A stretch of 64,000 nucleotides of DNA from an uncultured Spirochaetota bacterium (GCA_963727175.1 CAVSFD010000002.1:4701381-4765380); one strand, 5' to 3'; shown: positions 8,924-54,176, counted from the stretch's first letter. Numbers and translations: made by a program. Notes: generated by a model from the letters alone, not told the origin.

Positions 8924-9002
8924 TCTGACCCCAATGCAACCGGAACCCGGGGTCAGAGCAACATGCCATGAAACAACTGGCCCCCATGCGATTGGGGGCC
9001 AG
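8924..9002 (-). terminator. Two stem-loops downstream of the secreted hydrolase gene. One has a 10-bp perfect stem (CTCTGACCCC / GGGGTCAGAG). The other has an 8-bp stem (TGGCCCCC / GGGGGCCA).
   Basis: Inverted repeats read in sequence at 8924-8959 and 8979-9002. They lie just 3' of the stop codon at 9034 of the minus-strand gene. Confidence 0.4.
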
Positions 9003-9033
9003 CAATGTCATCATATATACTATGCAGCGGTTG

Positions 9034-10077: not shown

Positions 10078-10298
10078 TTTTTTAAGCCGATAACTATCAC
10101 TGCGCCTCCAACTCCAAAATCAGTCTTTATTTATATAAACGTCCAGCGACCGTCCAGTCGGTTTGATGTATACACTATATGCATATACAAAATCCAGATG
10201 CTACTCAATATTACAGATTCTGTAAATTTGACAGAATTCTCGCAGGAAATCTCTTTTTAAAGGGCCAAATCCCTTGAACAACGAGGTATTGCCTTTTA

Positions 10299-11867
10299 TT
10301 AGCGAATATCAAGTTTTAATTCAGCCCGGTACTCGGTAGGTGTTTTGCCGGTGCAGTTTTTAAAGGCCCTGTTGAATGTTGACAGGCTGTCAAAACCCGT
10401 GGCCAGGGCGGCATCAATGATCTTAACCTGCTTGTCCTTAAGGCGTTCCATCGCCTCATGTATCCTGAGCTCATTTATGTAATCATTGATTTTTTTTCCG
10501 GTGAATTCCTTGAACTGGCCGCTGAAATAGTTGGGGTTCATCCCTACCGCAGCGGCAAGGCCCTCGCGGGAAATATCAGACCGGTAATTCTCATTGATGA
10601 AGGCTATGATACTCTTCAATTTTTCCCCGGTTGAATCGGTTACGACCTTTCGCCTGGCATGGTCCGATTTCTGGCCGGGCACATGGAGCTGTTCATAGAG
10701 GACCTTCAGGCTGATCATCCTGCGCTGGTATTCACGCGATCCCAGCACCGCGAAGCCGAGGATAACGAAAGGCGAGAAATAGGTTACTATAAGGAAGGAG
10801 TACCTGCTCCCGGTGATATACAACAATACCTCGAGGATCCCGCCGACGGAGAGGAGCGACACCAGAACCAGGATCACCGCGCACTTGAACCTGTCGGGCC
10901 GAAGCCTGTTGATCCTCAGGGTCATGTACACGGCATAGGGGATGAAAGCGGTTATTATCACCAGGCCATAGAGAGGGTTCAGATAAAAATCGAGGACGAT
11001 GTAATTCAAAAGAAATATCACGCCGGACACAGCAAGTACCCCGCCGTTGATGATCCATGAATATTCAAACAAATCAACGCGGTACAGCGCCTGAATAATG
11101 AGAATGAACAGAATGCCGAAGAGCGGCATTGCCAGCATAAGCAGGGGCGGGATCATATCAAGGGCAACCATTTTGTAGGGGGAAAAAATGGTGATGATGT
11201 AGACCGCATTGAGGAGCTGCACCAGGATCTCGTACAGGAAGAGCCTGTCATATCCGTAAAAAATTGTCACTGCCGTCATGAGCAGGATGCTTCCCGCGAG
11301 GAGAAGGAGTATGCCGATGGGAAGCTGGTTGTAGATCAGGTCATAGAAGTTCTTCAGGCGGCGGTATTCCATCTTCGGCTGGATATAGACCCCGTCAGGG
11401 AGGCCGCCGTACTCATAGCTGTAAATGCCCAGGTACAGGTAAATTTCATTTTTTCCTTTTTTGAGGAGGCCCCGGGGCATCATAAAACTTTCCGGGTAAT
11501 GAAGATTGGATATCTCGGGCGGCGTTTTAACGTCGATCAGGTAATCATTGATGAATATTTCATACGTGTAATTGATTCTTCCCAGCGTAATGCCGTAATA
11601 CTTCTCCGGATTGTCTTTTATATCAAATTCACCCCTGAGCCAGCAATACCGGAAGGCCCGCTCCGCCTTATAGGGCAGCCGAAACTTCGATGGTATTTGT
11701 ATGGGGACCCATCCGGTCATTCCCCGAACAGCGTCGATTGACGGCTCCTGGCTGTACAGCACCATCCATTCCCGTACCTGGATGGATTCCGGAATAGCAG
11801 GAAAGCAAAATGATCGGGCCGGCAGTAAGATAAAAAAACACGCGGCGATGAGCAATGGCAACTTCAT
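10299..11867 (-). CDS. Membrane-bound AraC-family transcriptional regulator with 7TMR-DISM sensor (periplasmic domain + 7TM) N-terminal to the HTH
   Basis: 522 aa with a signal peptide, a periplasmic domain, about 7 TM helices and a C-terminal AraC HTH (DSLSTFNRAFKNCTGKTPTEYR). Confidence 0.75.
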   Translation of the reverse strand: MKLPLLIAACFFILLPARSFCFPAIPESIQVREWMVLYSQEPSIDAVRGMTGWVPIQIPSKFRLPYKAERAFRYCWLRGEFDIKDNPEKYYGITLGRINYTYEIFINDYLIDVKTPPEISNLHYPESFMMPRGLLKKGKNEIYLYLGIYSYEYGGLPDGVYIQPKMEYRRLKNFYDLIYNQLPIGILLLLAGSILLMTAVTIFYGYDRLFLYEILVQLLNAVYIITIFSPYKMVALDMIPPLLMLAMPLFGILFILIIQALYRVDLFEYSWIINGGVLAVSGVIFLLNYIVLDFYLNPLYGLVIITAFIPYAVYMTLRINRLRPDRFKCAVILVLVSLLSVGGILEVLLYITGSRYSFLIVTYFSPFVILGFAVLGSREYQRRMISLKVLYEQLHVPGQKSDHARRKVVTDSTGEKLKSIIAFINENYRSDISREGLAAAVGMNPNYFSGQFKEFTGKKINDYINELRIHEAMERLKDKQVKIIDAALATGFDSLSTFNRAFKNCTGKTPTEYRAELKLDIR

Positions 11868-12020
11868 AACTTTATAAATTTCACTTCAAGGTAATTTTAA
11901 CAAGTAAAAAATATCCTGTGAGCGGATAATTTAGAGGTCAGATTATCACTGTCAACCTATGATTATCTGCATGAGATGTAAAGCATCAGAAATACAAGCC
12001 GTGAGACCGGGTCAGATTAA

Positions 12021-13988
12021 TTATTTTCCTGCGCTGTACCGTCCATCAAGGTCAATGATCATGCTGTCGACGCGGCTCTCGAAGAGCTCCAAAGCCTCGT
12101 CAAAATATGCGCGGAAGTCCCTGTTGACGGAGCGGTATTTTTTACGCGCCCTCGCTTTCAGAGCGCGGCAGTATTTCTGAAGATCAGGGAGTGAATCACC
12201 GCCCGGGGCCATCGCCTCGATCTTCTTTTTCATAGATAGAGTCATGGCGTCAATGTATATCCGCATATCTTCGGCAAGCTTCTTCATCGGCTCCTCGATG
12301 GTGCTGTGGAAATCGTCATGGAGCATGCGGTATTTCATTCTGACTGCCGCGGCAAAGGTCTTTCCGAACACCTCGCGGTCGAGGGCAAGAAGCTCCCGAA
12401 CGATATCCTCCATGCGGCCGAAGCGGGCCCGTTCGATCCTGTTTCTCAGGCTCATCCGCATCGTTTCGATCGATGCAGACAGGTCATCCGCCGCGAGGAT
12501 TTCTTTTGTTATCCTGAAAAAGTGGTACCCGAAAAGGGCCATCTTGACCGCCTTGGGAAAGAGCCCCGGCCGAATCCGCACGGCCGCGGCAAGGTAGTTC
12601 AGGTATTCCCTTCCATATGAAGAGAATATCTGACGGAACACCGAGGAGAGAAAAATCCTGACAACGAGGAGGATCGTCCAGAAGGATAATGCCCCGCGGC
12701 CAACCTTCCCCCGGGGCATTCTCTGCATCATGGTAAGGCACCGGTTGAAGTACTCCCGGGGCGTGTAGATCTGCGATATCAGCTCCCTGTACCCCTTCGC
12801 CAGCGTTTCTCCGTCCATGACAGGGATAAAGTTGGTGGTGAAGCTGTGGGTGTTGTTCCCCGACGTCTCCGACAGTATCCGTCCCTCCGAATTGAGACGG
12901 CGATAAAGCCGGGTATTGGGAAGGGCGATGAGTAGTCCCGCCATGGCCATGGGTATGCCCGATTCGCGGATGAAATCGATCTGCAGGTCAAAGACATTCT
13001 CAGGGTCGCTGTCAAAGCCGATGATGAACCCTGCCGTCACTTCCATTCCCTTGCGCTGGATGCGCTCCACTCCCCGGAGAAGGGAACCCTTGAGGTTCTG
13101 CTTCTTCCCGGCCTGTTCGAGGCATTCCGCGACCGGGGTTTCGATGCCCAGGAAGACCTTGTTGAACCCGGCGTCGATCATCAGGTCCATCAGTTCCTCG
13201 TCGTCGGCGAGATTGACGCTGGCCTCGGTGGTTATCATGTAGGGATAGTGCCGTTCCTCCTGCCACCGTGCGACCGCGGTGAGAAGCTCTTTCACATTCT
13301 TTTTGTTGCCGATAAAGTTGTCGTCCACTATGAAGAGCGGCCCCCGGTAACCGGTGCGGTACAGCGCTTCCATTTCGGCGATAAACTGCTCCGGCGTCTT
13401 GGCACGGGGCACCCGGCCGAAAAACTCAATGATGTCACAGAACTCGCAGTTGAAGGGACATCCCCGGGAATACTGCAGTGACATGGTGGTATAGCGGCGG
13501 TGCTTCACCAGGCTGAAGCGGGGGACCGGTGTTTTCGTGATGTCCGGTCTCGAATCGCTCCGGTACAGGGGCCGGGCCTCGCCCTTCTCCCAGTCCTGAA
13601 GGAACTGCGGCAGCGTTACCTCCGCCTCACCCAGGACAAAGTGGTCAACGCCGGTAATATGCCGGTGAGACCCCGTGGGATAAGGTCCCCCGGCCACGAC
13701 GGTTTTACCGAGTCTGTTGCACAGGGCCACGACCCGGTCAAAGGATTCCTTCTGTATGATCATGGCGGAGATGAAAACCAGATCAGCCTTCTTTACATCC
13801 CGCACCATCAGCTTCTCAGTGTTCATGTCCACCAGGGTTATATCATAGCTGTCCGGGATAAGCGATGCCACGGTCATCAGTCCCAGCGGCGGAAAGGCCG
13901 AACGCCGGCCCACCAGCTTCAGTATGTACTTAAAGCTCCAGTAGGTCACCGGGGTATCAGGATATATCATCAGTATCTTTTTTTTCAT
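12021..13988 (-). CDS. B12-binding domain radical SAM protein (class B rSAM with C-terminal DUF4070-like extension)
   Basis: 655 aa. The N-terminal Rossmann-like cobalamin-binding region is MIYPDTPVTYW...LGLMTVASL. The rSAM Cys motif is CPFNCEFC (CxxxCxxC). Confidence 0.8.
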   Translation of the reverse strand: MKKKILMIYPDTPVTYWSFKYILKLVGRRSAFPPLGLMTVASLIPDSYDITLVDMNTEKLMVRDVKKADLVFISAMIIQKESFDRVVALCNRLGKTVVAGGPYPTGSHRHITGVDHFVLGEAEVTLPQFLQDWEKGEARPLYRSDSRPDITKTPVPRFSLVKHRRYTTMSLQYSRGCPFNCEFCDIIEFFGRVPRAKTPEQFIAEMEALYRTGYRGPLFIVDDNFIGNKKNVKELLTAVARWQEERHYPYMITTEASVNLADDEELMDLMIDAGFNKVFLGIETPVAECLEQAGKKQNLKGSLLRGVERIQRKGMEVTAGFIIGFDSDPENVFDLQIDFIRESGIPMAMAGLLIALPNTRLYRRLNSEGRILSETSGNNTHSFTTNFIPVMDGETLAKGYRELISQIYTPREYFNRCLTMMQRMPRGKVGRGALSFWTILLVVRIFLSSVFRQIFSSYGREYLNYLAAAVRIRPGLFPKAVKMALFGYHFFRITKEILAADDLSASIETMRMSLRNRIERARFGRMEDIVRELLALDREVFGKTFAAAVRMKYRMLHDDFHSTIEEPMKKLAEDMRIYIDAMTLSMKKKIEAMAPGGDSLPDLQKYCRALKARARKKYRSVNRDFRAYFDEALELFESRVDSMIIDLDGRYSAGK

Positions 13989-35172: not shown

Positions 35173-36321
35173 TTATTTAATCAAAGTGATATAGGCCGGA
35201 GACTTAAGCAGAAAGTGTTCGGCCATTTCGAATATTACGATATCGGGCTTCTCCGCCTCGATAACGTCCCGGTTGAAGCGGCCGTAGCTCTGGAAGCAGG
35301 CCATCCGGCTGAAATGGTCCGCCATCAGGGGCTTGATGAAGTTGAAAAACGAATCGTGGAACACAACTGCTTTCGGCCTGCTCCGGTCGTTCGATTCGAT
35401 CGCTTCGGTGAATCTGCTGAAGGGAGCCGGGTAGGTGACGGCCGCTGTTTTCCATTCCCGCTTTTCCTTCGGAATGAAAATGGGGATTTCCTCGGTGAAC
35501 CTGTCCTCGAGACCCAGCAATCTCGCCAGATCCCCGCCGATAAAATGTTTCGTTGTTACCGTGAAATTTTCCAGAGAATGGGGAACCATCGGTCCCAGGA
35601 TGCCGGAGAGCCTGCCCATTATGGCGCGGTACGCGTAGTAGGCTCCGTAGTCGTTCCAGTGAACATCATGCTTGTAGAATACCAGATGGCCCTTCTTGCC
35701 GGTGATGACGCCGGGGCCGGTGTCAAGAACATCAATATCGGTGTGCTGTTTCATATACTGCATGATCTGGTCGAGGCGGGTCCGGTCCTGCACCGGCCTC
35801 AGGTACTCCGGTACGTATTCGGGATACACCCGCGGCTTCATGGGAACGAACACAACCAGCATCCGGATCCCTCTGCCGGCAAGGAACTTCTGTATTTCGG
35901 CAAGGGGCTTCACCCATTCCGCCATTTCCTTTTCCCCCTTGAACAGGGAAAGGGAACGGTAGTAGTCGAAGGAATTGTTCCCGTCGTCGTCCTTGATGAG
36001 ATAGAGCCAGCCCTTCCTGCCGACGAGCACCTTGGGAAACTGTTCGACCCTGAGGACATTCAGCTTGAAGAGGCTGTTCCACCGGATGAGGACGTTGCGG
36101 AAGCCGAAATTGTCCACGTAGTACTTCATGAACTTGCTCTGGAATTCTATAATCGACCTGCGGTCTAGCGTTAGCTCCGGCAATTTTGTCATGGTGCGCT
36201 GTTCAGTGTTCTCCCCCGGTGCGATCCCCATCATGCTTCCGATGTTAGGCACCCAGATGGCCATCATGAACAGTACTATGGTGATTGTATATGCGACTGA
36301 TGTTATCCTGGATTCCTTCAT
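35173..36321 (-). CDS. AlgX/AlgJ/PatB-like periplasmic O-acetyltransferase partner (SGNH-like)
   Basis: 382 aa with an N-terminal TM anchor and a periplasmic domain. It sits immediately downstream of an MBOAT gene, which is the typical MBOAT + AlgJ-like pairing. Confidence 0.55.
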   Translation of the reverse strand: MKESRITSVAYTITIVLFMMAIWVPNIGSMMGIAPGENTEQRTMTKLPELTLDRRSIIEFQSKFMKYYVDNFGFRNVLIRWNSLFKLNVLRVEQFPKVLVGRKGWLYLIKDDDGNNSFDYYRSLSLFKGEKEMAEWVKPLAEIQKFLAGRGIRMLVVFVPMKPRVYPEYVPEYLRPVQDRTRLDQIMQYMKQHTDIDVLDTGPGVITGKKGHLVFYKHDVHWNDYGAYYAYRAIMGRLSGILGPMVPHSLENFTVTTKHFIGGDLARLLGLEDRFTEEIPIFIPKEKREWKTAAVTYPAPFSRFTEAIESNDRSRPKAVVFHDSFFNFIKPLMADHFSRMACFQSYGRFNRDVIEAEKPDIVIFEMAEHFLLKSPAYITLIK

Positions 36322-36331
36322 GGATTGTACC

Positions 36332-37777
36332 TCAGAATTGCCTGTAGATGAACGGGGTATACGTATCGCTCGCCAGGGCCATCGCCGAGAGGAGCAGCAC
36401 GCAGGCCAGGAAGATTATCTGCGCAGTGAAAAAGGCTATGGAAAGCACGCGGTAGGTGGAGCCGTTTTGGGCATCAATGAAGGCTTCTACTTTTCCCCTC
36501 ACGAAGGGAGCCAGGGGCACCGAGCCTACCAGGGCCAGGATGATCCCTATAATCGTGTCTGAATTGCTTATGAACTGGATAAAGTCATAGCGGGCAACGG
36601 CGGGACGGATGGCGCCGTACATGGTGGCGATATAGGTTCCGGCGGCGGCCAGGTCGTTGGCGCGGAAAAAGACAAAGGATGTGAAATAGAACATGAGCAG
36701 GTAGAGGTGGCCGAAAGGCGACCGTTCGGTTACATTACTGGTGGCCCTCTCGAAGGCCATGAAGATGCCGTGGCACATGCCCCAAATAACGAAGGACCAG
36801 GCGGCTCCATGCCAGAGGCCCGATATGAAGAAAATGATGATAATGTTAAAATACGCCCGCGCATTGGAAACACGGTTGCCCCCGAGTGGAATGTAGAGGT
36901 AATCCCGGAACCAGGCTGTCAGCGTTATATGATAACGGCGCCAGAATTCGCCGACCGAACGCGATACCAGGGGATAATTGAAGTTTTCCATGAACTTGAA
37001 CCCGAACATCTTCCCCAGGCCGATCGCTATGTCGCAGTACGCGACCCAATCGAAGAGCAGTTGGAGCCCGTAAAGGGCCGCCCCGAGCCAGGCCACCCCC
37101 GCCGTCAGGTCCCGGGCCGGGACCGCGAATATCTTGTCCACAGGCACGCTCAGCACATTGGCAATCAGTGCCTTCTTGCCAAGCCCCATGATGACCCGCC
37201 TCACCCCTTCGGCGAAATCGGTCCTGGTGACGCGACTATCCGCCAGCTGGGGCGCCATGTGGTGGTATGTCTCAATTGGTCCCTGCAGCACCTTGGGGAA
37301 CATGGCAATGAACAGGCCGAGCTTCACCGGGTCTTTTTCAGCTTCAACCTTACGGCGATATATATCCATGCAGTAGGTTATTATCTGGAACGTGTAAAAC
37401 GACAGGCCCACCGGCAGCTTGAAACGCGGGACGGTAAAGGGCGCCGCACCGAAGAGACCGATGATTGTGTTGATATTGGTGACGAAAAAACCCGTGTACT
37501 TGAAAAAAACAAGGGGGAATATGTTGCACACCAGGGATATAACCAGGATCATCTTCCGGCGCTCGCCTGCGCGGGCGAGAAGGATCCCGAAATAATAGTT
37601 CATGACTATGTATAGCACTATCAGAAGGGTGTATATCTTCTCGTCCCAGAAATAAAACACGAAGCTCGCTATAAGAAGGTATACGTTCCTCGCCATCGGC
37701 CTGTTTCTCAGGAAAAAGAAAATGACCAGCGTTATGGGAAGGAAAAAAAACAGGAATGTAACTGAACTGAAAACCAT
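36332..37777 (-). CDS. MBOAT-family membrane-bound O-acyltransferase (AlgI/DltB/PatA-like)
   Basis: 481 aa and polytopic. The conserved His region is WHGAAWSFVIWGMCHG, and the sequence matches the FYTFQIITYCMDIYRRK segment of AlgI/DltB. Confidence 0.8.
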   Translation of the reverse strand: MVFSSVTFLFFFLPITLVIFFFLRNRPMARNVYLLIASFVFYFWDEKIYTLLIVLYIVMNYYFGILLARAGERRKMILVISLVCNIFPLVFFKYTGFFVTNINTIIGLFGAAPFTVPRFKLPVGLSFYTFQIITYCMDIYRRKVEAEKDPVKLGLFIAMFPKVLQGPIETYHHMAPQLADSRVTRTDFAEGVRRVIMGLGKKALIANVLSVPVDKIFAVPARDLTAGVAWLGAALYGLQLLFDWVAYCDIAIGLGKMFGFKFMENFNYPLVSRSVGEFWRRYHITLTAWFRDYLYIPLGGNRVSNARAYFNIIIIFFISGLWHGAAWSFVIWGMCHGIFMAFERATSNVTERSPFGHLYLLMFYFTSFVFFRANDLAAAGTYIATMYGAIRPAVARYDFIQFISNSDTIIGIILALVGSVPLAPFVRGKVEAFIDAQNGSTYRVLSIAFFTAQIIFLACVLLLSAMALASDTYTPFIYRQF

Positions 37778-37984
37778 GTCGTGTTTTAGGTAATAATCCT
37801 TACTAGTTTGTCTGTAGTAATATCATGCACAGCGGTCCTGGTCGGTGTCAAATCATTCCAGCCGGAGCATAATCATTCGAGAAGCTGTAGGATAAAAATT
37901 ATCTTCAGGCACAAGTCAAGGAAAAAACTGGATGATACCCATTGTATTACATACAATCATACTGAAGGGGTGGGGGCGGACACC

Positions 37985-42418: not shown

Positions 42419-42823
42419 GTGGGGGTGCCGGCCATGCTTGAATTTCTCGATTACTTCTTTCTTATCTTTCACACTATCTTCACCCTCTTCAACATGACGG
42501 GATGGATCTGGAAAAAGACGAGAAAAATCCACCTGGCCACTATCACGGCCACTGCCTTTTCCTGGTTTATCCTGGGGATCTGGTATGGTTGGGGGTTCTG
42601 CTTCTGCACCGACTGGCACTGGAAGGTGCGTTCAGCCCTGGGCCGGCCCATCACCTCCGATTCATACATACACTTTCTCATTCTCGACATAACCGGAATC
42701 AACCTGCCCCCCCGCCTGGTGGATACGGCCACCCTGGCGGTCTTCGCGGCGTGCTGTGTTGCCAGCATCGCATTGAACCTGAAGGATTTTGCAAGGTATC
42801 GCGCGGATAAGCGCAAAGGCTGA
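42419..42823 (+). CDS. Small integral membrane protein, hypothetical
   Basis: 134 aa with 4 predicted TM helices. Confidence 0.4.
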   Translation: MGVPAMLEFLDYFFLIFHTIFTLFNMTGWIWKKTRKIHLATITATAFSWFILGIWYGWGFCFCTDWHWKVRSALGRPITSDSYIHFLILDITGINLPPRLVDTATLAVFAACCVASIALNLKDFARYRADKRKG

Positions 42824-42931
42824 CCCAGGCTCCCGCCCGGGAGTACCGCCACAATCCCGGACGCAGGATCCATACAGACTGTTGCTGCCGGCTGCCCGAA
42901 TCTCTTCTGCGGCAGGAAGAACCAACGTCCG

Positions 42932-43396
42932 CTAAAAACCGATCTTCTCCTTGCTCATTTCAGGAACCGGGATATTCTTGATGACCCTGTAGGAACCGGC
43001 CGGAAGCTTTTCGCTCCACTGACGCTCTGCCACGATGAGCCGCTGGAGCTGCTCGTTGTAGCGGACAAGCACCTCATGGCCGCGGCCGCCGGTATTTGTT
43101 ATAAACCCGGACAGGGTACCGCCCACCATTTCGCGGTTGATCTCGGCGGGGCTCAGGATTTTCCGGACCCTTCCATAGAAGACGCCGATCATGTGCCTGT
43201 GCGCCCTGCTGCCGTTTACGATCAGGGTGGCCTCGGTATAGGGCTCACCGTCCCTGTCCGCGCTGGAAAATTCCCAGGTCACGTAAATCCCGTCCTGCCG
43301 TTCTGTCCGCGGCGCCTCGCGGACGCTTTTACTGCAGCCCGCTGCGAATAAACCTGAGGCGGCTATTACTGCTATAATTACAATCAATCGTTTCAT
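42932..43396 (-). CDS. Lipoprotein, hypothetical
   Basis: Signal peptide and lipobox (LFAAGC). No motifs were recognised. Confidence 0.45.
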   Translation of the reverse strand: MKRLIVIIAVIAASGLFAAGCSKSVREAPRTERQDGIYVTWEFSSADRDGEPYTEATLIVNGSRAHRHMIGVFYGRVRKILSPAEINREMVGGTLSGFITNTGGRGHEVLVRYNEQLQRLIVAERQWSEKLPAGSYRVIKNIPVPEMSKEKIGF

Positions 43397-43438: not shown

Positions 43439-44437
43439 TCACCCGCCGATCTTTGACATGAACCCTGACCTGGTCAGGGCCGAGCATCCGCCCTCATCAG
43501 GGGCGCAATCGAGGCTGTGGCCCTCACCTTTCATTGAGACGGCCTTCATTATTTCCCCGCGGACCGTATCGTCGTCCGCCCCTTCGCGGAAAAGCTTTTT
43601 CAGGTCATGGTCTGCACTTGAATGCAGGCACGTCTTCAGATAACCATCAGAGGTGATCCTGAGGCGGTTGCAGGATGAGCAGAACTTCTTCGTAAGGGGC
43701 GGTATCACGCCGATCCTCATCCTGTGTCTCCCCCGGTAGCGGTAATCATACATCAGGGCGACATTCGTGTCGATATCCCTGTTGCGCTCAAGGTCTCCCC
43801 TGGCACGCAGTTCCCCGATGAGCTTATCCGATGAAAGGAAAGACCCGCCGGATTCATCTTTAACGAAGGGCATCTTCTCGATAAATCGCACGGTCACGTC
43901 CCGGTCTTTGAAAAATTCAAGATAATCATCCAGCTCGGCGATGGTCTCCCTGAAGAGCACCGCGTTCACCTTCACGTCAAAAAACCCGTGCGCCAGGGCC
44001 CTGTCGATGGCGGATAGTACATCGTCAAGGCCGTCACGCATCGTAATGGCACGATAGGTTTCCCTTGAAAGCGTGTCGAGACTGATATTAAGTTTTCTCA
44101 CCGCCAGGCGGCGCAGGTCATCGATATAATCGCCGAGCAGTATGCCGTTGGTGGTAAGACAGAGTTCAAGCCCCGGGTATGCATCCCTGGTCTTCGACAC
44201 GATATCGATAAAGCCCTTCCTGACAAGAGGCTCGCCGCCTGTGAAACGCACTTTCACGATGCCCATGGAAGCAAAAATGCCGATAAGCCTGACAAATTCC
44301 TCGTTCCTGAGGACCTGGTCATGCGGAAGCAGTTCCACGCCCTCGGGGGGCATACAGTACCGGCATCGCAGGTTGCATTTGTCGGTTATGGAAACACGCA
44401 GGTAGTCGTGTTTGCGCAGATAGGCGTCGGTAAGCAT
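43439..44437 (-). CDS. moaA: GTP 3',8-cyclase (molybdenum cofactor biosynthesis protein A)
   Basis: 332 aa with the rSAM motif CNLRCRYCMP, the C-terminal auxiliary cluster CSSCNRLRITSDGYLKTC and the GG tail. Confidence 0.85.
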   Translation of the reverse strand: MLTDAYLRKHDYLRVSITDKCNLRCRYCMPPEGVELLPHDQVLRNEEFVRLIGIFASMGIVKVRFTGGEPLVRKGFIDIVSKTRDAYPGLELCLTTNGILLGDYIDDLRRLAVRKLNISLDTLSRETYRAITMRDGLDDVLSAIDRALAHGFFDVKVNAVLFRETIAELDDYLEFFKDRDVTVRFIEKMPFVKDESGGSFLSSDKLIGELRARGDLERNRDIDTNVALMYDYRYRGRHRMRIGVIPPLTKKFCSSCNRLRITSDGYLKTCLHSSADHDLKKLFREGADDDTVRGEIMKAVSMKGEGHSLDCAPDEGGCSALTRSGFMSKIGG

Positions 44438-44784
44438 AGCGCCATGAATACTCCACGGAAAAACTAAATATCATCCCAGGTAAGATACAATAGAAATGAG
44501 GATATATTGGCAAGTATTTTAATGATGCTGGTTTTTTTCATCAAAACAGATTCCGGACTATCCAATAATACAAAAAATGCCCTAAGGTTATGAGAGAACC
44601 GATAATATACATTCATAAGCAATAATTAAGAAAAAGAGATCAGTCATAAAGGATGATTAACCAGTTGAATGACAGCACATATTATTTTGATCCTGAATTA
44701 TTTTTTTATTGATAATAAAGTAAATCAATATAATCATGGCATCCTTCTTCGTGATTTTAATCTTATAATGCGGAGCGAGACGAC

Positions 44785-45576
44785 ATGCACAGCTTTGATG
44801 ATCTGAAAAGAAAACTTGAAAAGAAAATCGCGGGAAATGAGATCAAGTCACCCGACGATGTCAATGCAGCGATTATTAAAATATTAGGCGAAAAGAAATA
44901 TTCAGCATATAAAACACATGTTGATGACATAATAGCTTTTTACCGCACAATGGTTCTGGAAAGAAAAGTAGAGAAATTATTCTATCATGTAATAGATCTT
45001 GGAAACGGCGAAGTAACCAAGGGCATGTTTGATATACGGAACATTTTACATGAATATAAATTCCCCGAGTCCCTGAGGGGGAAACGGGTGCTTGATGTTG
45101 GTTGCGCTGACGGTTTTTTTTCCTTTCATTTCGAGCGGCTGGGGGCAAAAGAAGTTGTCGCCATTGACACTTTCGAAAATGAAAATTTTCTCTACGCCCG
45201 GAAAAAATTGGCCTCAAAAGTCAAGTATAAATTGATAGATGTCATGGACATAAACCCGATTGACATGGGATACTTCGATTTTGTTTTTTGCGGAACCGTC
45301 CTCATTCACTTGTCAGACCCGATATATGCCTTGAAAAATATCAGGAACATGATACAGCAAGGTTCTTTTTATTGTTCAAGCAACATTCATTTTCATGGGA
45401 CAAGCCTGCCCCGGAAGGCTTTATCAAAGTTGCTGAAGAAGTCACCAAACTACGCCCTGCTTGAAACCGGCGGTCTTGGAGAAGGCGAGGTCCCATCATA
45501 CTGGATACCGACTGCCGATACATTAAGACTCATGCTGCTGAAAGGGGGATTTAAAAACCATCGAAGGGGCCGATAA
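44785..45576 (+). CDS. Class I SAM-dependent methyltransferase (in AT-rich island)
   Basis: Motif I is VLDVGCADGFFS, with motif post-I following. Local GC is about 38%. Confidence 0.65.
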   Translation: MHSFDDLKRKLEKKIAGNEIKSPDDVNAAIIKILGEKKYSAYKTHVDDIIAFYRTMVLERKVEKLFYHVIDLGNGEVTKGMFDIRNILHEYKFPESLRGKRVLDVGCADGFFSFHFERLGAKEVVAIDTFENENFLYARKKLASKVKYKLIDVMDINPIDMGYFDFVFCGTVLIHLSDPIYALKNIRNMIQQGSFYCSSNIHFHGTSLPRKALSKLLKKSPNYALLETGGLGEGEVPSYWIPTADTLRLMLLKGGFKNHRRGR

Positions 45577-46132
45577 ATGTTCAATATATAATAGCACCTT
45601 CGGAAAAAAAATACGCTCATACAAAGGAACATGGAATTATCCACAGGTATGCTTCAAGTGCATAGTCTAACTACAATCACCTGGTGAATGTATTTATTGA
45701 TTCTAAATACATTGCCTTTTATAGTAGAACATCCCCTATCGTATACGCACTTAACAGCACTATTAAGATTATCATAGTGATAAAAACCGCAGATGACGTA
45801 AATAATAAAATGCGCCGGCATGAAACAGTAAACAATCGCCATGGGGACCGGACAAACACTTCGGTTATATCATGTTTCACCATGGTCAATTTGATATATT
45901 TAAAAAAATATTTATTGCTCACCATTATCCTTATGAACCAGGCATGTTCCTCCCTTTTTTCTGGAGTAATCTGAAAAAATGGTTGTTCTGGAGACGGTTA
46001 ATAATAACATTTATTCTGATATTAAATAATTGTCCGGCGAATGATGCCGGGGATGAACACCATGCTCGCCAATTATTTATAGATTCAAGATTAATCATGA
46101 AAACAATCGTTTAATGCAAAAAAGGATACGAC

Positions 46133-47290
46133 ATGAATATCGCATTCGAAGCATTCGCCCTGTCCTTCAAAAACCTAACCGGCATCGGGAACGTGACCCT
46201 CAACTATATCAGGGAGCTTCAAAAAAATGATCCTGATAATCGCTATTACATCTATACCATCGATGGGCTCCTCCATGCCGAGCTGCAGAGCGAAAAGTGG
46301 CGTCACGTTCAGACAGGACTGGCGTGTCAACACCTTTAGATATCCCGGTGCCGGCAGGCCCTGGCACGCTGAGAAGCGGCAATGTATGATACGATATCAT
46401 ACAAACTCAGGCTGTTCTTTTACCGTGTACTGAAAATGGCCCTGGAAGTGATTGACCGGGGCTGCCTCTACTTCTGGCTTGCAAAATCTATGCGCGACAA
46501 CAGGATAGATGTCTATATCGGTTTCTTCGCCGATTTTTTCCCCTTCTGCTTTTTTTCACCGGTAAAAAAGATATGGATCATTCACGACCTTGTATGGAAA
46601 CTTTATCCTGAAACGACTGACATAAACAGCAGATACAAAAAGCGCGCCATTGTCAGGAACATGAAGCGGGCCGATCTGCTCCTCTCGGTATCTGACAGCA
46701 CCAGGAACGACCTGATAAGTCTTCGGAACATTCGAAAGGAGATCATAACACTCCACAACGCAGCAGACCGGAGCGTGTTCTATAAGGCCGACCAGAAATC
46801 CGTTATGCGCATCACCAGGAATTATGGCATTACCCGTCCCTACATATTGTCCGTATACACCCTGGCGCCCCGCAACAGGTAGTCGCGGTTATTGACGCTT
46901 ACGGAAAAATCGGGCGCAGTGTGAAGCACCAGCTGGTGCTGGCGGGGATGAGCGGGTGGAAGAACACGAAGCTCTTCGAAATGATAGAGCACAGGCAGAT
47001 CTTTTTTATCGAATTGATATCCCGGCAGAAACAAGGACAAAGGAGTCATGTGTTTCTTGCTTCCCAATCTCTGCGAAGCGTCGGTGCAGGTCCTTGAAGC
47101 GATCCAGTGAGGTTATGTCCTGCATTTCACGACATGGCCTCGAAACCTGAAGTGGCCGGCGATGCGTGCATCCTGGTGGACCCCAACGACATTGATGGCC
47201 TGGCATCGGCAATTAAGCGGGTGCTGGGGGACAGGAACCTGAGAAAAACCATGGGCAGGAACGGCCTGGACAGATGAAAAAAACGCACCG
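46133..47290 (+). pseudogene. Glycosyltransferase family 4 (GT-B) gene broken into at least 4 frame-shifted pieces
   Basis: The pieces are MNIAFEAFALSF...TGIGNVTLNYI, ...YILSVYTLAPRNR, LVLAGMSGWKNTKLFEMIEH and PEVAGDACILVDPNDIDGLASAIKRVLGD. They lie in three frames, with stops at A and T homopolymers. Confidence 0.55.
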
Positions 47291-47907
47291 GGAATTCATC
47301 GGCGGACAATAATCAGAGCGTTAACCTTTCGAACCAGAGACTTCCGGTACATATGCCGGTCCAGGTACTGCTGATCTATTGATCATCTACTTATACGTAA
47401 CAGGTATATGGTCATTTAAAAGCACTCAATGATCTCAATGCTGCATCATTAACTTCATTGGGGTCATAGGATATATAAAAAATTTTATCTACTTTTATTA
47501 TGTTGACAAATATTGACATGTCCCTTTAAAAGATAGATTCAGATTATGTTATAATTTTCCCTTTACTTATACCAGAGAAAAAAACGGAGACATGAAAGGA
47601 GCCGTACAGTTACATTACTGCAACGCCCGTGAAGCCAGGGAACAAGCGGACAAATACGGAACAAGCGAGTAGCTTGCTCAAATATAATTTCTAATTCGGG
47701 ATACATGCAACATGGTGCATGCAGATTTACAGTATTTTAACATGACAATCGAGTACTGATTATTCGATCAGCATGGAACGTATACGGCGGAGGCGAGATT
47801 TTAACGTCATGACTCTGCAACTACCTCTCCAGCCAGGCATGCAAAATTCGATACTGACAAGTGAAATGTTCCCGAAATAATTTCCGGCCTGATACAACAC
47901 CGATGTC

Positions 47908-48889
47908 ATGATAGAAAAAATAAAACCCGGCGAACTGCGATCCATGATGGACAAGTACAGGAGGCAGATGAAATCGCTTTCACTGGGCTTAAGGAAACAT
48001 CAGGAATCCTTTGATGTCATCAATGCGCATAATTTTCCGGCGGAAATCGTCGCTGCGTCAAGCAGCAAGCCCGTGGTCTGGATGTGCAACGAACCGGAGC
48101 TATCTCTGATTGGCAAGCAACCGGGTTTAAAATCATGTTTCACGCCCAGCATGATTTACCTCTATATCCAATATTTACGAGAAAAATACCTGGTTAAGAA
48201 TAAAATAAAAAATATCGTTGTATCCGATGAATTCAATGCGGAAAGATTTCATACAATTTACGGGTTACATCCGACAATTATCAATTATGGTATAGATTAT
48301 GACTTCTTCTCCGGCAGGGGCGAAGGAGAACGGCAGGAGGATGATTCTTTCGTCAAGAAATTCGACGATCTCCATGTAGGCATGATCACAGGGTTCAAGA
48401 ACCAGATGTAAAGCCTGGAAGCTCATAATGCCACCAAGAATAAAATACCGGAAAGTGTTATTGTATTCGCCGGTGGAGGATATGACGAAAACTATAAAAA
48501 GCTGATTGATGCGTACATCCAGGACAATGATCTACTGATCGGGTCATTTTCAAAGGCCACATCAACAGGAGCCAACTGCGTTCACTCTATCACAGATCAA
48601 ACGTCATGATCCACCCGATCAAGGCCCAGGGCGGATGGCTGAGCCCCTTTGAAATGATGAGTGCCGGGAAGCGGTGATAGTGTCAAAAGAATTCACCGCA
48701 TCCGACCTGATTGAAAAAAACCGGCTGGCGATCATAACTGATAATTATGACGAAGCCATTCTCGATAGATATTTGCACCACGGCAGGATTGCCGGGATGG
48801 TGGAGCGCGGCAGGGAATACGTAAAAAACAACCTCTCCTGGGACTCATTCGGGAAAAAGATGCTGGATGCATACACCGCAGCCCTGTAG
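47908..48889 (+). pseudogene. Second GT4-family glycosyltransferase gene, frame-shifted
   Basis: The N-terminal-domain ORF covers 47908-48411. The C-terminal part is in other frames (GHINQLELRSLYHRSNVMIHPIKAQGGWLSPFEMMSAGKAVIVSKEF...). Confidence 0.5.
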
Positions 48890-48910
48890 TCCTTATACAG
48901 TGAACATCAT

Positions 48911-50253
48911 ATGGAAAAAATAAAACTCAACGAGCTGCAGAGATTTTTGAAAAATTTCTTTTTCAGGATCGTGGGACTACTGATTTCGACATTGTTCAAT
49001 ATCCTTCTGGTCTCCCATTATTCAAAGGTCCTTCTCGTAGACGGTTTTGGAAGGTACAACTTTCTACTCACCTACACGTCATATTTCCACCTGATAATCT
49101 CGCTCGGCCTCGACGTCGTGTCGATGAGAGAGATCTCTATATCGAAGGGTGAAGACTGTTTCGGCACCATGATGTGAGGAATCTTATTCTTGCCGAGATC
49201 CATTGGTATGATAGCCGCCATACAAAAAGCGACTATGGATGGCTGCTGGTAATATCGGTGCTCTACACTGTTGTCTTATCCACATATACATCGATATTCA
49301 AGATCGGGACCTTATCATTTATTTGTAGTCCCTGCAGAAATATTTTAGTAGTGTAAAACAGGGATCTACGCGGCGGGCATCATTAACACGGCTTCCATGG
49401 TGATGATTGTATTCATGCAGCTGATACTTGTCATGAAGATACATGGTAGCCACCCCCGATTTGAGCGGACGTCAATGGGAACAAAGAGTGGCATAATTAT
49501 CGGATTCATCCAGATCATGCTTACCATGGTTATTACTTCAACATAATTCTGCTGGAATGACAGACGAAGTGACGATCGTTGCCAACGCCGATCCGCTCAT
49601 GCACCGATCCGCTGGGGATTTCATAACTCATGAATCCTATCCTCTTCGAAAACTAAAAAAGAGCATCGATGATTTTAAAAAGTATTTTGAAAAATACATG
49701 AAATTCATGATCTTTTTCAGTTATGGCGTCACCGTGATTTTCATTATCCTGGCTGAACATTATTTGCAGATTTTCTACAACCTCAAGGATTACCATGAAA
49801 GCATATTCTGTTTCAAGATCCTCATGTTGTCCCTGCTTTTCATGACCATCAACTCACCGCTCCATGGCGGCATGCTGGCGGCGCACAAGGAAAAAACGAT
49901 CCTTTTAATCACGGTAGTCAATTTTTCTTCTTCATAATAGCAAGAACCTGCCTGGTTATTCGGCATACGCCGGCCATGACGGCCTGATTTACCGGCCTTG
50001 GGGCCCCCACATAACTACTTTAAACAAACGTTCCTACACATTGCTTAAGATTTGTCATTCCATTCTTTTAGCAATCCCCATGGGGATATTTCTATATTTC
50101 AGCCCGCTGCATTACATGATCACGGGAACCATTGGGGTGGTAATCATGATTATTTTCGCTGTTATTCTACGAGGTTATACTATTGAGGAGATAATGACCA
50201 TCAAGAAGACCCTGTTTTCAGCCAATAAACAAGATGAATCCGCAGAACTGTAA
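48911..50253 (+). pseudogene. Wzx-like polysaccharide flippase gene, fragmented
   Basis: Consecutive hydrophobic ORF fragments (MEKIKLNELQRFLKNFFFRIVGLLISTLFN..., ...IFFSYGVTVIFIILAEHY..., ...LLAIPMGIFLYFSPLHYMITG...) lie in different frames. Confidence 0.45.
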
Positions 50254-50317
50254 CTCCTCGGTCCGGCTGCACGGCATCATCAAATCACGATAAACATACG
50301 GGCACAAGCCAGAGCCA

Positions 50318-50797
50318 TCAATCATTTCCGCCGGTAACCGGAGAAATGATGAAGTTGTTCCTGAAAACAACATTGTCCGGCGCGATGCGGCAGGCCTCCA
50401 GGTACATCCGGAAGGCACCGTCCCTGTTGCCGGTTATCTCGTAAACGACCGCCAGGTTGTTGCGCGCGGCCGGTTCAAGGGCATCCTCGGCCAGGACCTC
50501 CCTGAAGAGAATCTCCGCCTGGCCGTACCGCCCCTCAATGGCAAGGTCAACGCCCCAGTTGTTAATGGCGGCAACCGGTGATAGACCGCTCTTCCGCGCC
50601 AGTACCTTCTTGGCCGTGACGTGGTACTGTGCCGTCAGGCTGCGGCCGCCGGCGGGGTCGGGGCGGTACAGGTCATGCCTGCGGTCTACCGATACGGTAT
50701 GGTAGCAGTAGCACGATTCCATGGCAAGGGACGCGAATATAGCGATTATCACCGCAAAACGTGTCACGGAATGCCTCCTTTCATACAAAGAAGACAC
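50318..50797 (-). CDS. TPR-repeat protein, probably periplasmic
   Basis: 159 aa with an N-terminal hydrophobic segment and TPR-like helices (AEILFREVLAEDALEPAARNNLAVVYEITGNRDGAFRMYLEACRIAPDN). Confidence 0.45.
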   Translation of the reverse strand: MSSLYERRHSVTRFAVIIAIFASLAMESCYCYHTVSVDRRHDLYRPDPAGGRSLTAQYHVTAKKVLARKSGLSPVAAINNWGVDLAIEGRYGQAEILFREVLAEDALEPAARNNLAVVYEITGNRDGAFRMYLEACRIAPDNVVFRNNFIISPVTGGND

Positions 50798-51095
50798 ATC
50801 ATGTTCCGTATGATGTCAATATAAAAAACCATGCGGCCCCGTCCTGTTTTTCCGCCTGGTGATCCAAGGCCGCCTGCTGAATAACGTGTAACCTTTCCAA
50901 ATAATTATTGACTAATTACTTTATCTGCTTTTTTTAGTGATACAATTACAGTATTTCTTAATATAGTTGTTGCGAAGCTTACGTATCGCGTTCAGAGTAG
51001 CCCCGCGGAGGGGCTTTGTAAGGGGCTTCACCCCCTTAACCCCTGAAGACTAAAATATTTTGCAGCAATTCTAAAATTATCCGGAGAAAAACCCA

Positions 51096-53042
51096 ATGTC
51101 GAAAAAGTACCTGGTCCTGATCGCGACCTTTGCGATCATACTATCCTGCTTCAAGAATTCCGAAGGCCTTAAAAAGAACGACATCCCCGCGCTGGTTAAC
51201 CAGTTCCTCGCCATGCACGTGCAGTACCACTCCCTGAACGACGAGCTGTCCGAACGCATCCTCGACAACTTCATATTGTCCCTGGATTACGGCAAGTACT
51301 ACTTCTACAAAAAAGACATCGAAGGATTCAAGAAATACCGGCACAAAATAGACGACTATGTCCAGAACAACCAGTTCGACTTCATGGACGACATCTATTC
51401 GCTTTACAAGAAGCGCTTCATGGAAAGCAACAAGCTCATCAACGAGCTTATCACAAGCAAGTTCGATTTTACCGTCGAAGAAAAAATAGTCGTCGACCGC
51501 GACAAGGTAGACTACGCCGAGACAAAAAAGGAAATGCGGGACCGCTGGCGCAAGAACATCAAGCTTCAGCTCCTCAACTACCTATCGTCAGGCCAGAGCC
51601 TGTCTGAGGCGAAAAAGAAGCTCGCCAAGAAATACAACCTTCTCAACAAGCGGGTCGATGAAATCGACGAGGAAAAGCTCCTCGACCGCTTCATGAACGC
51701 CTTTTCAATGGCCCTTGATCCCCACTCCAATTACCTCACGCAGGAAGAGAACGAGGATTTCAGCATATCCATGAAACTGAAGCTTGAAGGGATCGGCGTC
51801 CGGCTCAAGACAGAGGACGGCTTTGTTATCGTAGAATCGATCATCACCGGCGGAGCAGCCGACAAGCTGCCGGAAAAGATCAAGCTGAAGCCGGGCGACA
51901 AGGTTATCGCCGTGGCACAGGGCGGCGACGAGCCGGTTGACGTGGTCGACATGGACCTCCGCGACGTGGTGAAAAAGATCCGCGGGACCAAGGGAACCGA
52001 GGTGCGCCTCACCGTGCTGCGCGAATCCGGCGAGGGCAACAAGCCGATCCGGATGGTGGTCCCCATCGTCCGCGAGGAGATAAGCCTCAAGGACAGCGCC
52101 GCAGAATCTCAGATACTGACCATCGACGGCGACAAAAACCGGAAGGTCGGATACATCAAGCTCCCATCCTTCTATTACGACAAGGAGCGGAGTAAAAGCT
52201 CGTCCGGCGACGTGCGGGAAATCCTCCTGAAGCTGAAAGCGGAAAAAGTCAAGGGCATCATCCTCGACCTCCGCGGGAACCCCGGCGGTCTGCTCAACGA
52301 GGCTATCGATATCGCGGGCTTCTTCATCACCGGCGGCCCGGTACTCCAGATCGTGGACGGCAGGAACCAGCCCCACGTGGTCAATGACAACGACGAGAGC
52401 ATCGTCTATGACGGCCCGATGGTGGTGCTGATCGACAAGTTCAGCGCCAGCGCCTCGGAGATCCTTGCCGGCGCCATCAGGGACTATAACCGCGGGCTCA
52501 TCATCGGACCGGACAACACCTTCGGCAAGGGCACCGTGCAGTCATACAATGAGCTCCCCTTCAAGAAGGGAGCCATCAAGATCACCATTTCCCTGTTCTA
52601 TCAGCCGGACGGCTTATCGAACCAGCTGACCGGCATCGCGCCGGACATCAGGGTGCCTGACCTCTCATCCATATGGGACATAGGCGAAAGCAAAAACCGC
52701 TATCCGCTCAAGTGGAAAAGGATACCGGCCGCGGAGCATAAAAACTTCGGCCTGGTGAACCAGGCCCTGGTGGCGCAGCTGAGCGGACAATCGGCGGCCC
52801 GCGTCAACGTCAGCGACAAGTACCGCAAGCTCATTGAAAAAATCAAAAAATACAAGGATCAGGTCAACAGCAAAACCATCAGCCTGAAGGAGGAGTCCGC
52901 CCTGGAGAAGCAGAAGCAAAAGGAGCTGGAAAAGACCTTCAACAAGGACAGCGGCAAAAAGCTGGTAGACCTGGAGAACGACCTGTTCCTGGGCGAGGCC
53001 TTCAAGATTACCGGTGATTACATCAACATGGTGGGCCGTTAA
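51096..53042 (+). CDS. prc: Tail-specific (C-terminal processing) protease, S41 family
   Basis: 648 aa with a signal peptide and PDZ domain. The S41 catalytic region is DLRGNPGGLL...SASASEILAGAIRDYNRGLIIG. Confidence 0.85.
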   Translation: MSKKYLVLIATFAIILSCFKNSEGLKKNDIPALVNQFLAMHVQYHSLNDELSERILDNFILSLDYGKYYFYKKDIEGFKKYRHKIDDYVQNNQFDFMDDIYSLYKKRFMESNKLINELITSKFDFTVEEKIVVDRDKVDYAETKKEMRDRWRKNIKLQLLNYLSSGQSLSEAKKKLAKKYNLLNKRVDEIDEEKLLDRFMNAFSMALDPHSNYLTQEENEDFSISMKLKLEGIGVRLKTEDGFVIVESIITGGAADKLPEKIKLKPGDKVIAVAQGGDEPVDVVDMDLRDVVKKIRGTKGTEVRLTVLRESGEGNKPIRMVVPIVREEISLKDSAAESQILTIDGDKNRKVGYIKLPSFYYDKERSKSSSGDVREILLKLKAEKVKGIILDLRGNPGGLLNEAIDIAGFFITGGPVLQIVDGRNQPHVVNDNDESIVYDGPMVVLIDKFSASASEILAGAIRDYNRGLIIGPDNTFGKGTVQSYNELPFKKGAIKITISLFYQPDGLSNQLTGIAPDIRVPDLSSIWDIGESKNRYPLKWKRIPAAEHKNFGLVNQALVAQLSGQSAARVNVSDKYRKLIEKIKKYKDQVNSKTISLKEESALEKQKQKELEKTFNKDSGKKLVDLENDLFLGEAFKITGDYINMVGR

Positions 53043-53123
53043 TTAAGCCATCTGAAATTTCTTAAAAAGCAAAGGCGAGGTCGTTCAACCTCGCCTTTGT
53101 CACATATATCCCCGGCTGCCCTT

Positions 53124-54176
53124 TCACATCCTGGCAATATATTCCCTCACCTTCCCGACCGATTCGCCCGGCGCGATCACGACAGGGTCCACCCCTGACC
53201 GCATGAGGCGGATGCGCAGGTCGCCGATGTCCCTCCTCCGGGCAGGGCAGCAGAGGTCCTCGATAAACAGGACCGCCTCGATGCCATGGCCCTTGATCAT
53301 CGAATAGAGAAGAGCGACACGCTCCTCCACAGGCCGCACCGACGGGCAGCGCGGGCGGTATGAAAAAGCGTCCAGTATTTCTCCATACAGGTCCGCCGAT
53401 TCATGGTTGTAGGACATGTCGAACTGCCTCCTGCCGCCGCAGGCGTCATCCTCCACGATGAGACACCCGGCGTCCTCGATCTCGTCCAGCAACGCCGCGT
53501 CGCAGGCAAAGCTCGCGTAGACCATCACCGGCACCGGGCGTACAGCCGCGCCGCTTTCCGCCCGGTTCAGCGCATCCAGGACCGATGCCAGGAACTCCGA
53601 AATCACGGCCGGCGGGAACATCACAGCCGCCTCCAGTATGACCCCCAGGTCGCGGCACGAGAGAAGGTCCGGCTTTTCACGCCGGGCCGATACGATTCCC
53701 CGCACCATCCTCCGCGCACTGTTGTACTCGGCGGTCACGGCAGCGAGCCTCCCGCGGTCAAGGCGGGACAGGCCGGGACACCCGGCATCCTCAAGAAGTT
53801 TTTCCAGGGAAGTCTCCATCATCCGGGATGATTCTTCACCCCAGCCGGCAGGGCAGTTGAATTCGTGCACCTTCAGTCGGGCTTCCCTCGTTCCTTCCCT
53901 GCCGGCGCATCCCCGCGGAACCACCAGGAGATCATAGACTCCCTCGATGCCGTCAATGGCCGGCACTCCCGCGGCGGTGCAATGACCGATCATCAGCGAG
54001 GGCAGCCGCAGTGGAACGAGCCCCAGGGCCGCGGTTATCTCTGCGGGGATCATATCGCAGGTGACGCCGGCCACGCGGGAGCCGGTCTCCTCCCGGAACC
54101 TGGCGACCGCCATGCCAGACTGATATATCATTTCCCTCAGGGGATCGACCAGATGTGAAAGCTTAGATTCCATCAT
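53124..54176 (-). CDS. 2-hydroxyacyl-CoA dehydratase / benzoyl-CoA reductase B/D-subunit family protein (orphan)
   Basis: 350 aa with the length and Cys pattern of the HgdB/BcrB/BadD family. I see no adjacent partner subunit or activator ATPase. Confidence 0.45.
   Translation of the reverse strand: MMESKLSHLVDPLREMIYQSGMAVARFREETGSRVAGVTCDMIPAEITAALGLVPLRLPSLMIGHCTAAGVPAIDGIEGVYDLLVVPRGCAGREGTREARLKVHEFNCPAGWGEESSRMMETSLEKLLEDAGCPGLSRLDRGRLAAVTAEYNSARRMVRGIVSARREKPDLLSCRDLGVILEAAVMFPPAVISEFLASVLDALNRAESGAAVRPVPVMVYASFACDAALLDEIEDAGCLIVEDDACGGRRQFDMSYNHESADLYGEILDAFSYRPRCPSVRPVEERVALLYSMIKGHGIEAVLFIEDLCCPARRRDIGDLRIRLMRSGVDPVVIAPGESVGKVREYIARM

Follow-up and report, generated by a model that had tools for sequence, protein, structure and literature searches.

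The 64-kb window analyzed here (the whole stretch of 64,000 nucleotides, GCA_963727175.1 CAVSFD010000002.1:4701381-4765380) belongs to the 4.80-Mb single contig of an uncultured Spirochaetota genome. Between moaA and a gene for a TPR-repeat protein it contains a block of low guanine-plus-cytosine (GC) content with four disrupted genes of glycan synthesis. This slot would represent a variable glycan-gene site, and the comparisons described below suggest that it probably holds a strain-variable glycan cassette whose sequence has been locally corrupted in this assembly, the apparent pseudogenization not being biological. A first-pass annotation had regarded the block as a horizontally acquired O-antigen or exopolysaccharide (EPS) cassette that is being eroded. 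Erosion was not supported, the differences from an intact copy being limited to a few scrambled patches within DNA that is identical otherwise.

Scrambled patches in the cassette genes

All four cassette genes lie on the plus strand of the block and are disrupted.

44785-45667, plus strand: class I S-adenosylmethionine (SAM)-dependent methyltransferase (Methyltransf_11, Methyltransf_23, and Methyltransf_25 matches)
46133-47330, plus strand: GT4#1 glycosyltransferase (Glyco_transf_4 and Glycos_transf_1 matches), in ~4 pieces here
47747-48889, plus strand: GT4#2 glycosyltransferase (tblastn against the GT4 of the related contig L086, with 54-82% identity in blocks, and against P0054 and P0055)
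48911-50253, plus strand: Wzx-type flippase (Polysacc_synt match)

GT4#1, GT4#2, and the flippase gene are each split into ~4-5 pieces by frame changes and in-frame stops, the latter being TAG at 46337, TAG at 46880, TGA at 47095, TGA at 47275, and TAA at 48409. The fragmentation of these three genes had been recognized in the first-pass annotation, which had not counted the methyltransferase gene among the broken ones; this gene is damaged as well (263 versus 293 aa).

The sequence was compared with independent contigs. L004 is a 3.06-kb Logan contig from run ERR10755939 that covers 44366 to ~47400, and L088 is a further Logan contig from the same run. L005, a 6.1-kb contig from ENA with a Flye-style name, spans the whole island, and L086 served as the outgroup for the flippase comparison. 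L004 encodes an intact methyltransferase (293 aa) and an intact GT4#1 (408 aa). Thus, sequence that restores intact open reading frames (ORFs), which the first-pass annotation had named as the finding that would speak against decay, is available for the left half of the block. In the three-way alignment of the window, L004, and L005 nearly all differences are private to the window. Between 44438 and 47283 the window differs from L004 in 137 columns, 128 of which are located in four patches that total ~400 columns and are ~32% divergent, i.e., 93% of the differences occur in 14% of the length. Outside the four patches only 9 differences were found in ~2470 bp (99.6% identical), and none at all from 44528 to 45557. 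When differences were counted in 50-bp bins, the variance/mean ratio was 18.6 and 39 of the 57 bins were without differences. Single patches are 17-46% divergent and include indels of 1-10 nt that are not multiples of three. The patches, including those recognized further to the right, are as follows.

45558-45594: patch 1, 8 substitutions and 4 indel columns, net +4 nt; truncates the methyltransferase and is private to the window against L004 and L005
46309-46429: patch 2, 16 substitutions and 5 indel columns, net +3; holds the in-frame TAG at 46337
46857-46916: patch 3, 10 substitutions and a 1-nt deletion; frame change and TAG at 46880
46991-47148: patch 4, 56 substitutions and 28 indel columns, net -24 nt; lies over the GT4 EGFG...PVLEAM motif and holds TGA at 47095
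47276-47405: TCA changed to TGA at 47275-47277 (nonsense), then patch 5, which lies over the 3' end of GT4#1
49130-49360: scrambled patch in Wzx with many 4-13-nt deletions; nucleotide identity to L086 is 25-53% for the window and 63-77% for L005
49440-49640: scrambled patches in Wzx; in the worst bins identity to L086 is 36-42% for the window and 53-68% for L005
49930-50060: scrambled patch in Wzx; identity to L086 is 28-35% for the window and 55-67% for L005

Along the whole flippase gene L005 holds 53-82% identity to L086. This comparison shows that the aberrant Wzx sequence is that of the window and not that of L005.

The changes within the patches do not resemble those between orthologues. 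Patch substitutions are distributed over the three codon positions in a ratio of 34:35:38, compared to 49:47:175 for a true orthologue, and the transition to transversion ratio is 0.65-0.8 in the patches versus ~1.1-1.2 between orthologues. Conserved and variable columns are struck alike, and the region of the GT4 catalytic motif is garbled. In the orthologue alignment the patch bases follow no relative. When polarity was assigned with the outgroup, the window base equaled the outgroup base in 54 of 136 cases (45 expected), which fits errors and neutral divergence alike.

The read set of run ERR10755939 provides a further line of evidence. L088 and the window are 100.000% identical for 3794 bp, from 50371 to 54164, in the stretch that follows the island on its right side. 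The read set with this window-identical backbone also has L004, and therefore an intact left half of the island is present in it. L004 begins exactly 30 nt (k-1, with k=31) ahead of the position at which the moaA alleles first differ, and the start of L088 lies within the TPR gene, by 53 bp. We infer that these starts are the expected de Bruijn branch points at a strain-variable island, which would be the very situation where a long-read consensus is weakest. L004 crosses all four patch sites unbroken, yet it breaks at the moaA allele junction. L005, for its part, is marked in these genes by other micro-clusters and single-base indels, which are private to it.

Outside the island, three conserved genes contain closely spaced frameshifts that are private to the window. 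The gene for a VorB/KorA-like 2-oxoacid:ferredoxin oxidoreductase alpha subunit (2348-3408, minus strand) contains two frame changes ~50 nt apart, near 2745-2756 and 2697. Its ORF comprises 223 aa in the window, whereas each of the other 10 proteins in its 90%-identity cluster has 350 aa, and the pieces jointly align to residues 23-391 of PDB 1yd7_A. Single-base insertions at 55316 (GT2) and at 55503 and 55610 (MlaD) are private to the window and absent in the relatives L006, L008, and L009; they shift the 3' parts of two convergent conserved genes, encoding a GT2 glycosyltransferase (54430 to ~55440) and MlaD (56255 to ~55454), respectively. The broken ORFs of the cassette are those that were deposited for the 4,802,620-bp contig, and every fragment is a singleton in a collection of 15 billion proteins (exact look-up).

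Taken together, we favor local corruption of the assembly because the differences are clustered in patches, private to the window, and degenerate, because one read set gives the intact L004 as well as the window-identical L088, and because strain heterogeneity occurs at both island borders. It is also favored because private and closely spaced frameshifts occur in VorB, GT2, and MlaD, because two long-read-style assemblies (the window and L005) are broken in unrelated ways while the k-mer-based L004 is intact, and because the ORFs were deposited in their broken form, every one as a singleton in the collection of 15 billion proteins. In such a scenario the island would differ between co-occurring strains, and the reads supporting the consensus across it would have been poor or mixed, with correction remaining incomplete. 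The outcome would be about ten short raw-read-like stretches (17-46% divergent, with non-triplet indels) inside an otherwise exact sequence.

Gene content and composition of the block

The block from 44450 to 50260 has a GC content of 42.6% compared to 55-56% in the adjoining 6 kb on each side and 53% in the whole window, and it represents the 5.8-kb stretch with the lowest GC content of the window. Thus, the low-GC block described in the first-pass annotation is present, whereas the values given there (~38% GC and a difference of about 20% from the flanks) were too extreme, the measured gap being 12-13 points. The composition is mixed, with 50% GC for GT4#1, 41-45% for the methyltransferase, GT4#2, and Wzx genes, and 31-37% for the spacers. 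A/T runs of at least 6 nt occur 4.5 times per kb in the block and 1.3-1.7 times per kb elsewhere in the window. Within the 64 kb, a stretch of more than 470 bp that lacks a stop-free frame of at least 130 codons is seen at the block alone. Further features of the block and its borders are listed below.

43439-44437, minus strand: moaA, left conserved flank (Radical_SAM and Mob_synth_C domains)
44438-44784, no strand: AT-rich spacer between moaA and the methyltransferase gene, 31% GC; matches L004 except for a 1-nt deletion at 44527
45680-45907, minus strand: relic of an older Wzx flippase gene, namely of its 3' end, with two internal frameshifts (tblastn)
50318-50797, minus strand: TPR-repeat gene, right conserved flank (TPR_2 and TPR_10 matches), syntenic in all relatives

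The presence of a SAM-methyltransferase, two GT4 glycosyltransferases, and a Wzx flippase, as annotated before, was supported by domain matches and tblastn. The Rossmann-type SAM-binding core characteristic of class I methyltransferases was recognized with E values of 3e-12 to 1e-9 at residues 93-199. The methyltransferase ORF ends at 45576 (263 aa), whereas the intact form of 293 aa (P0047) runs on to 45667, using frame 2. The window protein is a 100% match to P0047 over residues 1-258, and the sequence for its C-terminus lies in another frame; homologues have 286-295 aa, and in the window copy the last ~35 residues are replaced by 5. The closest homologue is 50% identical and adjoins a Wzx gene in the glycan clusters L001 and L002. 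GT4#1 is broken by two frames and 5 stops. The pair of GT4 domains (PF13439 and PF00534) was found on window fragments for the two GT4 genes, and the full pair is present on the intact L004 copy. The EX7E-type motif region of GT4#1 is scrambled in the window (46991-47148) but intact in the L004 copy. In the same genome an intact GT4 paralogue (P0135, 412 aa) with 48% identity to GT4#1 is encoded. GT4#2 is found in ~5 pieces, with frame changes near 47840, 48535, and 48671 and the TAA at 48409, where L005 has GAA. The flippase gene consists of ~5 pieces and is ~100 nt shorter than its homologues. The PF01943 match (Polysacc_synt, MOP superfamily) at 48911-49177 identifies it as a Wzx-type flippase, the frame of which is broken in the record, and in the clean block 49656-49925 it shares 83% amino-acid identity with the Wzx of L086 (tblastn; homologues have 480 aa). 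A direct repeat of 28 nt with 82% identity, probably due to chance, has one copy within GT4#2 (47911-47938, MIEKIKPGEL) and a second copy, at a distance of exactly 1000 nt, where the flippase gene begins (48911-48938, MEKIKLNEL).

The segment 45600-46130 had been described as free of recognizable genes. It was found to contain the 3' end of the methyltransferase gene (to 45667, in frame 2), the minus-strand Wzx relic, and ~225 bp upstream of GT4#1. The relic shows 38% identity to residues 417-488 of the Wzx from L007 (E value 8e-8, tblastn) and is common to the window, L004, and L005; its L005 copy is also matched by the L086 Wzx. With four genes, one relic, and spacers the 5.8 kb are wholly accounted for. 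Scans of the ORF fragments with Pfam and NCBIfam and tblastn with proteins of neighboring clusters yielded no Wzy polymerase, no initiating phosphoglycosyl transferase, and no chain-length or export gene in the 5.8 kb. Bac_transf was found in L001 and L002 and not in the window cassette. The window has no nucleotide-sugar biosynthesis genes; L086 has epimerase, NTP-transferase, and radical-SAM genes at the same slot, and they are found in L087 as well. Of the components of a Wzx/Wzy cluster, the flippase and the repeat-unit transferases are thus represented, whereas functions for polymerization, initiation, export, and sugar-nucleotide synthesis are not. Even when intact, the cassette covers only part of a pathway and falls short of a complete O-antigen or EPS cluster. 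Judging from protein families and gene neighborhoods, the intact cassette would add sugars to a lipid-linked oligosaccharide, methylate them, and flip the product across the inner membrane; for the initiating transferase, the sugar-nucleotide genes, and any polymerase it would depend on other sites of the genome.

Slot content in relatives and cassette turnover

By its moaA homologues, the window belongs to a clade of metagenome-assembled genomes (MAGs) from uncultured Spirochaetota, some records of which are labeled Leptospirales. The flanking genes are syntenic in all close relatives, whereas the slot content differs among them as follows.

L010 and L011: empty
L008: intact GT4#1 orthologue alone, adjoining the TPR gene
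L006 and L009: GT4#1 orthologue and ~1.3 kb of other DNA
L007: different glycan genes over ~7 kb, among them a flippase gene beside moaA
L086 (JGI 3300069939 contig, 30 kb), positions 5664-12680: intact 7-kb cluster with epimerase, nucleotidyltransferase, radical-SAM/SPASM, GT4, Wzx, and GT4#1 orthologue genes

The L086 cluster is useful as a model of a complete slot occupant. A low GC content of the slot is also seen in relatives (L007, 43% versus 57%; L086, 42% versus 48-50%).

Orthologues of GT4#1 with 65-79% amino-acid identity adjoin the TPR gene in L006-L009 and L086. GT4#1 is a clade-conserved resident and not a recent import, and it has about the GC content of the genome. The accessory low-GC part is represented by the methyltransferase and the GT4#2-Wzx module. 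The idea of an acquired O-antigen or EPS cassette therefore holds for a polysaccharide-type cassette in a slot of deviant composition that varies between strains and species, but not for the resident GT4#1 nor for a complete cluster.

Turnover of the slot would be best explained by homologous exchange through the flanks, because there is no tRNA, border repeats are at chance level only, no plasmid or phage similarity was found, and an allele breakpoint occurs in the first 42 nt of moaA. Neither a tRNA nor a tmRNA was detected within the 64-kb window, no Rfam family reached the gathering threshold across the window, and none was found at E values up to 1 in 44300-47800. Direct and inverted repeats at the borders did not exceed chance level, and a search for plasmid or phage similarity was negative. 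An integrative island with border direct repeats or with a flanking tRNA or integrase, the latter two of which the first-pass annotation had suggested looking for, is thus not apparent, and the flanks are syntenic core genes. The deviant composition and the variable presence among relatives are those of a genomic island. The first 42 nt of moaA contain 8 nucleotide differences to L004 and L005 (44396-44434, codons 2-14), of which 7 occur within 19 nt. Five are synonymous, and the other three are located in two codons at residues that are variable among relatives. These differences abut island DNA that is 100% identical, and they look like a natural recombination breakpoint or a strain allele. 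The flippase relic is a real, old scar of cassette turnover.

Other copies of the island were searched for. The methyltransferase gave none among 185,579 species genomes, exact searches of JGI metagenomes with two 31-32-mers taken from clean blocks were negative, and a concatenated GT4#2 and Wzx query retrieved nothing closer than 48% overall.

A further difference from the relatives was observed left of the island. The distance from the DUF2784 gene to the 160-aa ORF beside moaA is ~108 bp in the window (42823-42932) versus ~2.9 kb in seven relatives (L006-L011 and L086), where it is occupied by genes for an MBOAT-family O-acyltransferase (538-551 aa) and a protein of 350-357 aa. The position of this missing gene pair is ~1.5 kb left of the island. 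A paralogous pair of MBOAT and AlgX-like genes is retained in the window at 35176-37822.

Alternative explanations and comparison with known systems

Several observations weigh against a local corruption of the assembly. Its long-read or hybrid origin is deduced from contig size and error pattern. L004 has a different, natural moaA 5' allele and comes from a co-occurring sister strain, and the strain of the window could truly hold a damaged copy. The region from 47.4 to 50.3 kb was compared only with the noisy L005 and an outgroup of 70-80% identity, and the patch divergence of 30-46% is high even for an uncorrected consensus. Isolated substitutions at 47276 and 48409 make stop codons outside the dense patches, which hints at relaxed selection. 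Furthermore, a real loss of glycan functions in the window lineage is plausible because the MBOAT-family O-acyltransferase gene and the adjoining 357-aa ORF are missing here and kept in seven relatives. It might therefore be that the damage is real and that the strain carries an inactivated cassette wrecked by clustered lesions, either because recombination of a long-decayed resident copy with a sister strain's intact allele left a mosaic or by some form of localized mutagenesis. A distinct strain does exist, as the window moaA allele is unlike those of L004 and L005; the changes are pseudogene-like, i.e., unconstrained by codon position and with a net deletion bias; and the locus already holds a true older relic. 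Nevertheless, we regard real damage as unlikely. About 130 changes in 400 bp versus 9 in 2470 bp are beyond neutral decay, homologous recombination cannot begin within 30%-divergent partners nor leave islands of 37-184 bp, and the patches are unlike any available orthologue or paralogue. In addition, a second, independent patchy decay would be required in L005, the paired frameshifts in VorB, MlaD, and GT2 would remain without explanation, and L004, broken at the moaA junction, would not be expected to pass the patch sites unbroken. Gradual erosion as such was rejected, as the lesions are highly clustered and the DNA between them is identical to the intact copy; neutral erosion spreads lesions with time, and the intervening DNA shows essentially no elapsed time.

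The first-pass annotation had offered as an alternative that sequencing indels at A/T homopolymers break intact genes. Such runs are indeed about three times denser in the island, and there is one isolated A4/A5 difference at 45782. However, the breaks lie elsewhere. In the half covered by L004, 28 of 32 runs of at least 5 nt are identical to L004 and 3 of the other 4 merely touch patches, so that among 17 indel events the A4/A5 difference is the sole isolated length change in a run of at least 4 nt. Several indel events comprise 2-10 nt and are set among dense substitutions, and the five in-frame stops come from substitutions. We therefore consider this explanation to be the least credible one, with next to no chance of being correct. 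A programmed or semi-programmed replacement of patches in glycan genes, by segmental conversion from silent degenerate cassettes or by an error-prone reverse transcriptase, is hardly more credible. Segmental conversion is known for the spirochaete antigen genes vlsE and tprK, and short replaced patches in identical DNA do resemble it, although in pattern only. However, when eight patch sequences were searched by blastn-short in 87 loci and in the remainder of the window, only L004, L005, and chance 13-15-mers were returned, i.e., no donor was found in the 64-kb window or the loci compared, and the outcome consists of frameshifts and stops in enzymes and not of surface-antigen variants. The GT4 paralogue P0135, at merely 48% identity, is too distant as a donor. 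The mutated bases (A 24, C 32, G 19, T 22) show no adenine bias. Adenine mutagenesis like that of a diversity-generating retroelement was rejected on account of this even spread, as was gene conversion from a paralogue or orthologue on account of the missing donor and of patch bases that follow no relative. Quite generally, there is only a slight chance that the patches are real and were made by a localized process that replaces stretches of 40-230 bp within the glycan genes of a single strain; this might proceed by segmental conversion, with degenerate silent copies as the source, or by imports that leave recipient segments interspersed in a mosaic, and we likewise give little credence to either. 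If true, such patches would turn off a surface-glycan cassette within an otherwise clonal population, and if they were confirmed on reads, clustered damage in identical DNA would need a new explanation.

With the local corruption of a strain-variable cassette as the preferred reading, the biological weight of the locus is small, as it adds another strain-variable surface-glycan slot, here in a poorly known clade of uncultured Spirochaetota. The slot nevertheless gives a clear record of cassette turnover, being empty, differently filled, or provided with the relic end of a flippase gene. Of more practical weight is that "pseudogenes" clustered in a metagenome-derived genome of a single contig should not be interpreted as decay. 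In the present case the cluster coincides with strain heterogeneity and is contradicted by an independent contig from a read set that also holds the window flank. Scoring the cassette ORFs as pseudogenes would inflate estimates of gene loss.

Compared to known systems, the window shares with decaying pseudogene clusters the multiple frameshifts and stops, the lack of codon-position bias, and the net deletions, but it differs from them in that the changes are extremely clustered and the remainder is identical to an intact copy. Residual consensus errors fragment genes in long-read or hybrid MAGs, worst at low coverage or strain heterogeneity. The window agrees with this in its private indels in VorB, GT2, and MlaD, the exact agreement with an independent contig elsewhere, the strain branch points at the island borders, and an L005 with private errors of its own. 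Unlike the usual isolated homopolymer indels, the patches span 37-230 bp, are 17-46% divergent, and consist mostly of substitutions, which would imply uncorrected raw-read-like segments rather than ordinary polishing residue. Wzx-dependent clusters located at a fixed slot and swapped by flanking recombination are represented by the enterobacterial O-antigen locus between galF and gnd and the rfb locus of Leptospira. In contrast to these, the window cassette comprises four genes only, and GT4#1 is a conserved resident outside the swapped module; unlike L086 and L001, the slot has no Wzy polymerase, initiating transferase, chain-length regulator, or sugar-nucleotide genes. In common with them, the cassette has a low GC content, GT4 transferases, a Wzx flippase, and a sugar-modifying methyltransferase, its slot varies in content among close relatives without integrase, tRNA, or repeats, and the locus shows allele breakpoints in the flanking genes and the relic of a prior occupant. 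Thus, the locus is neither a self-contained O-antigen or EPS cluster nor an integrative island, but works like the familiar Wzx-dependent glycan clusters that are exchanged between strains.

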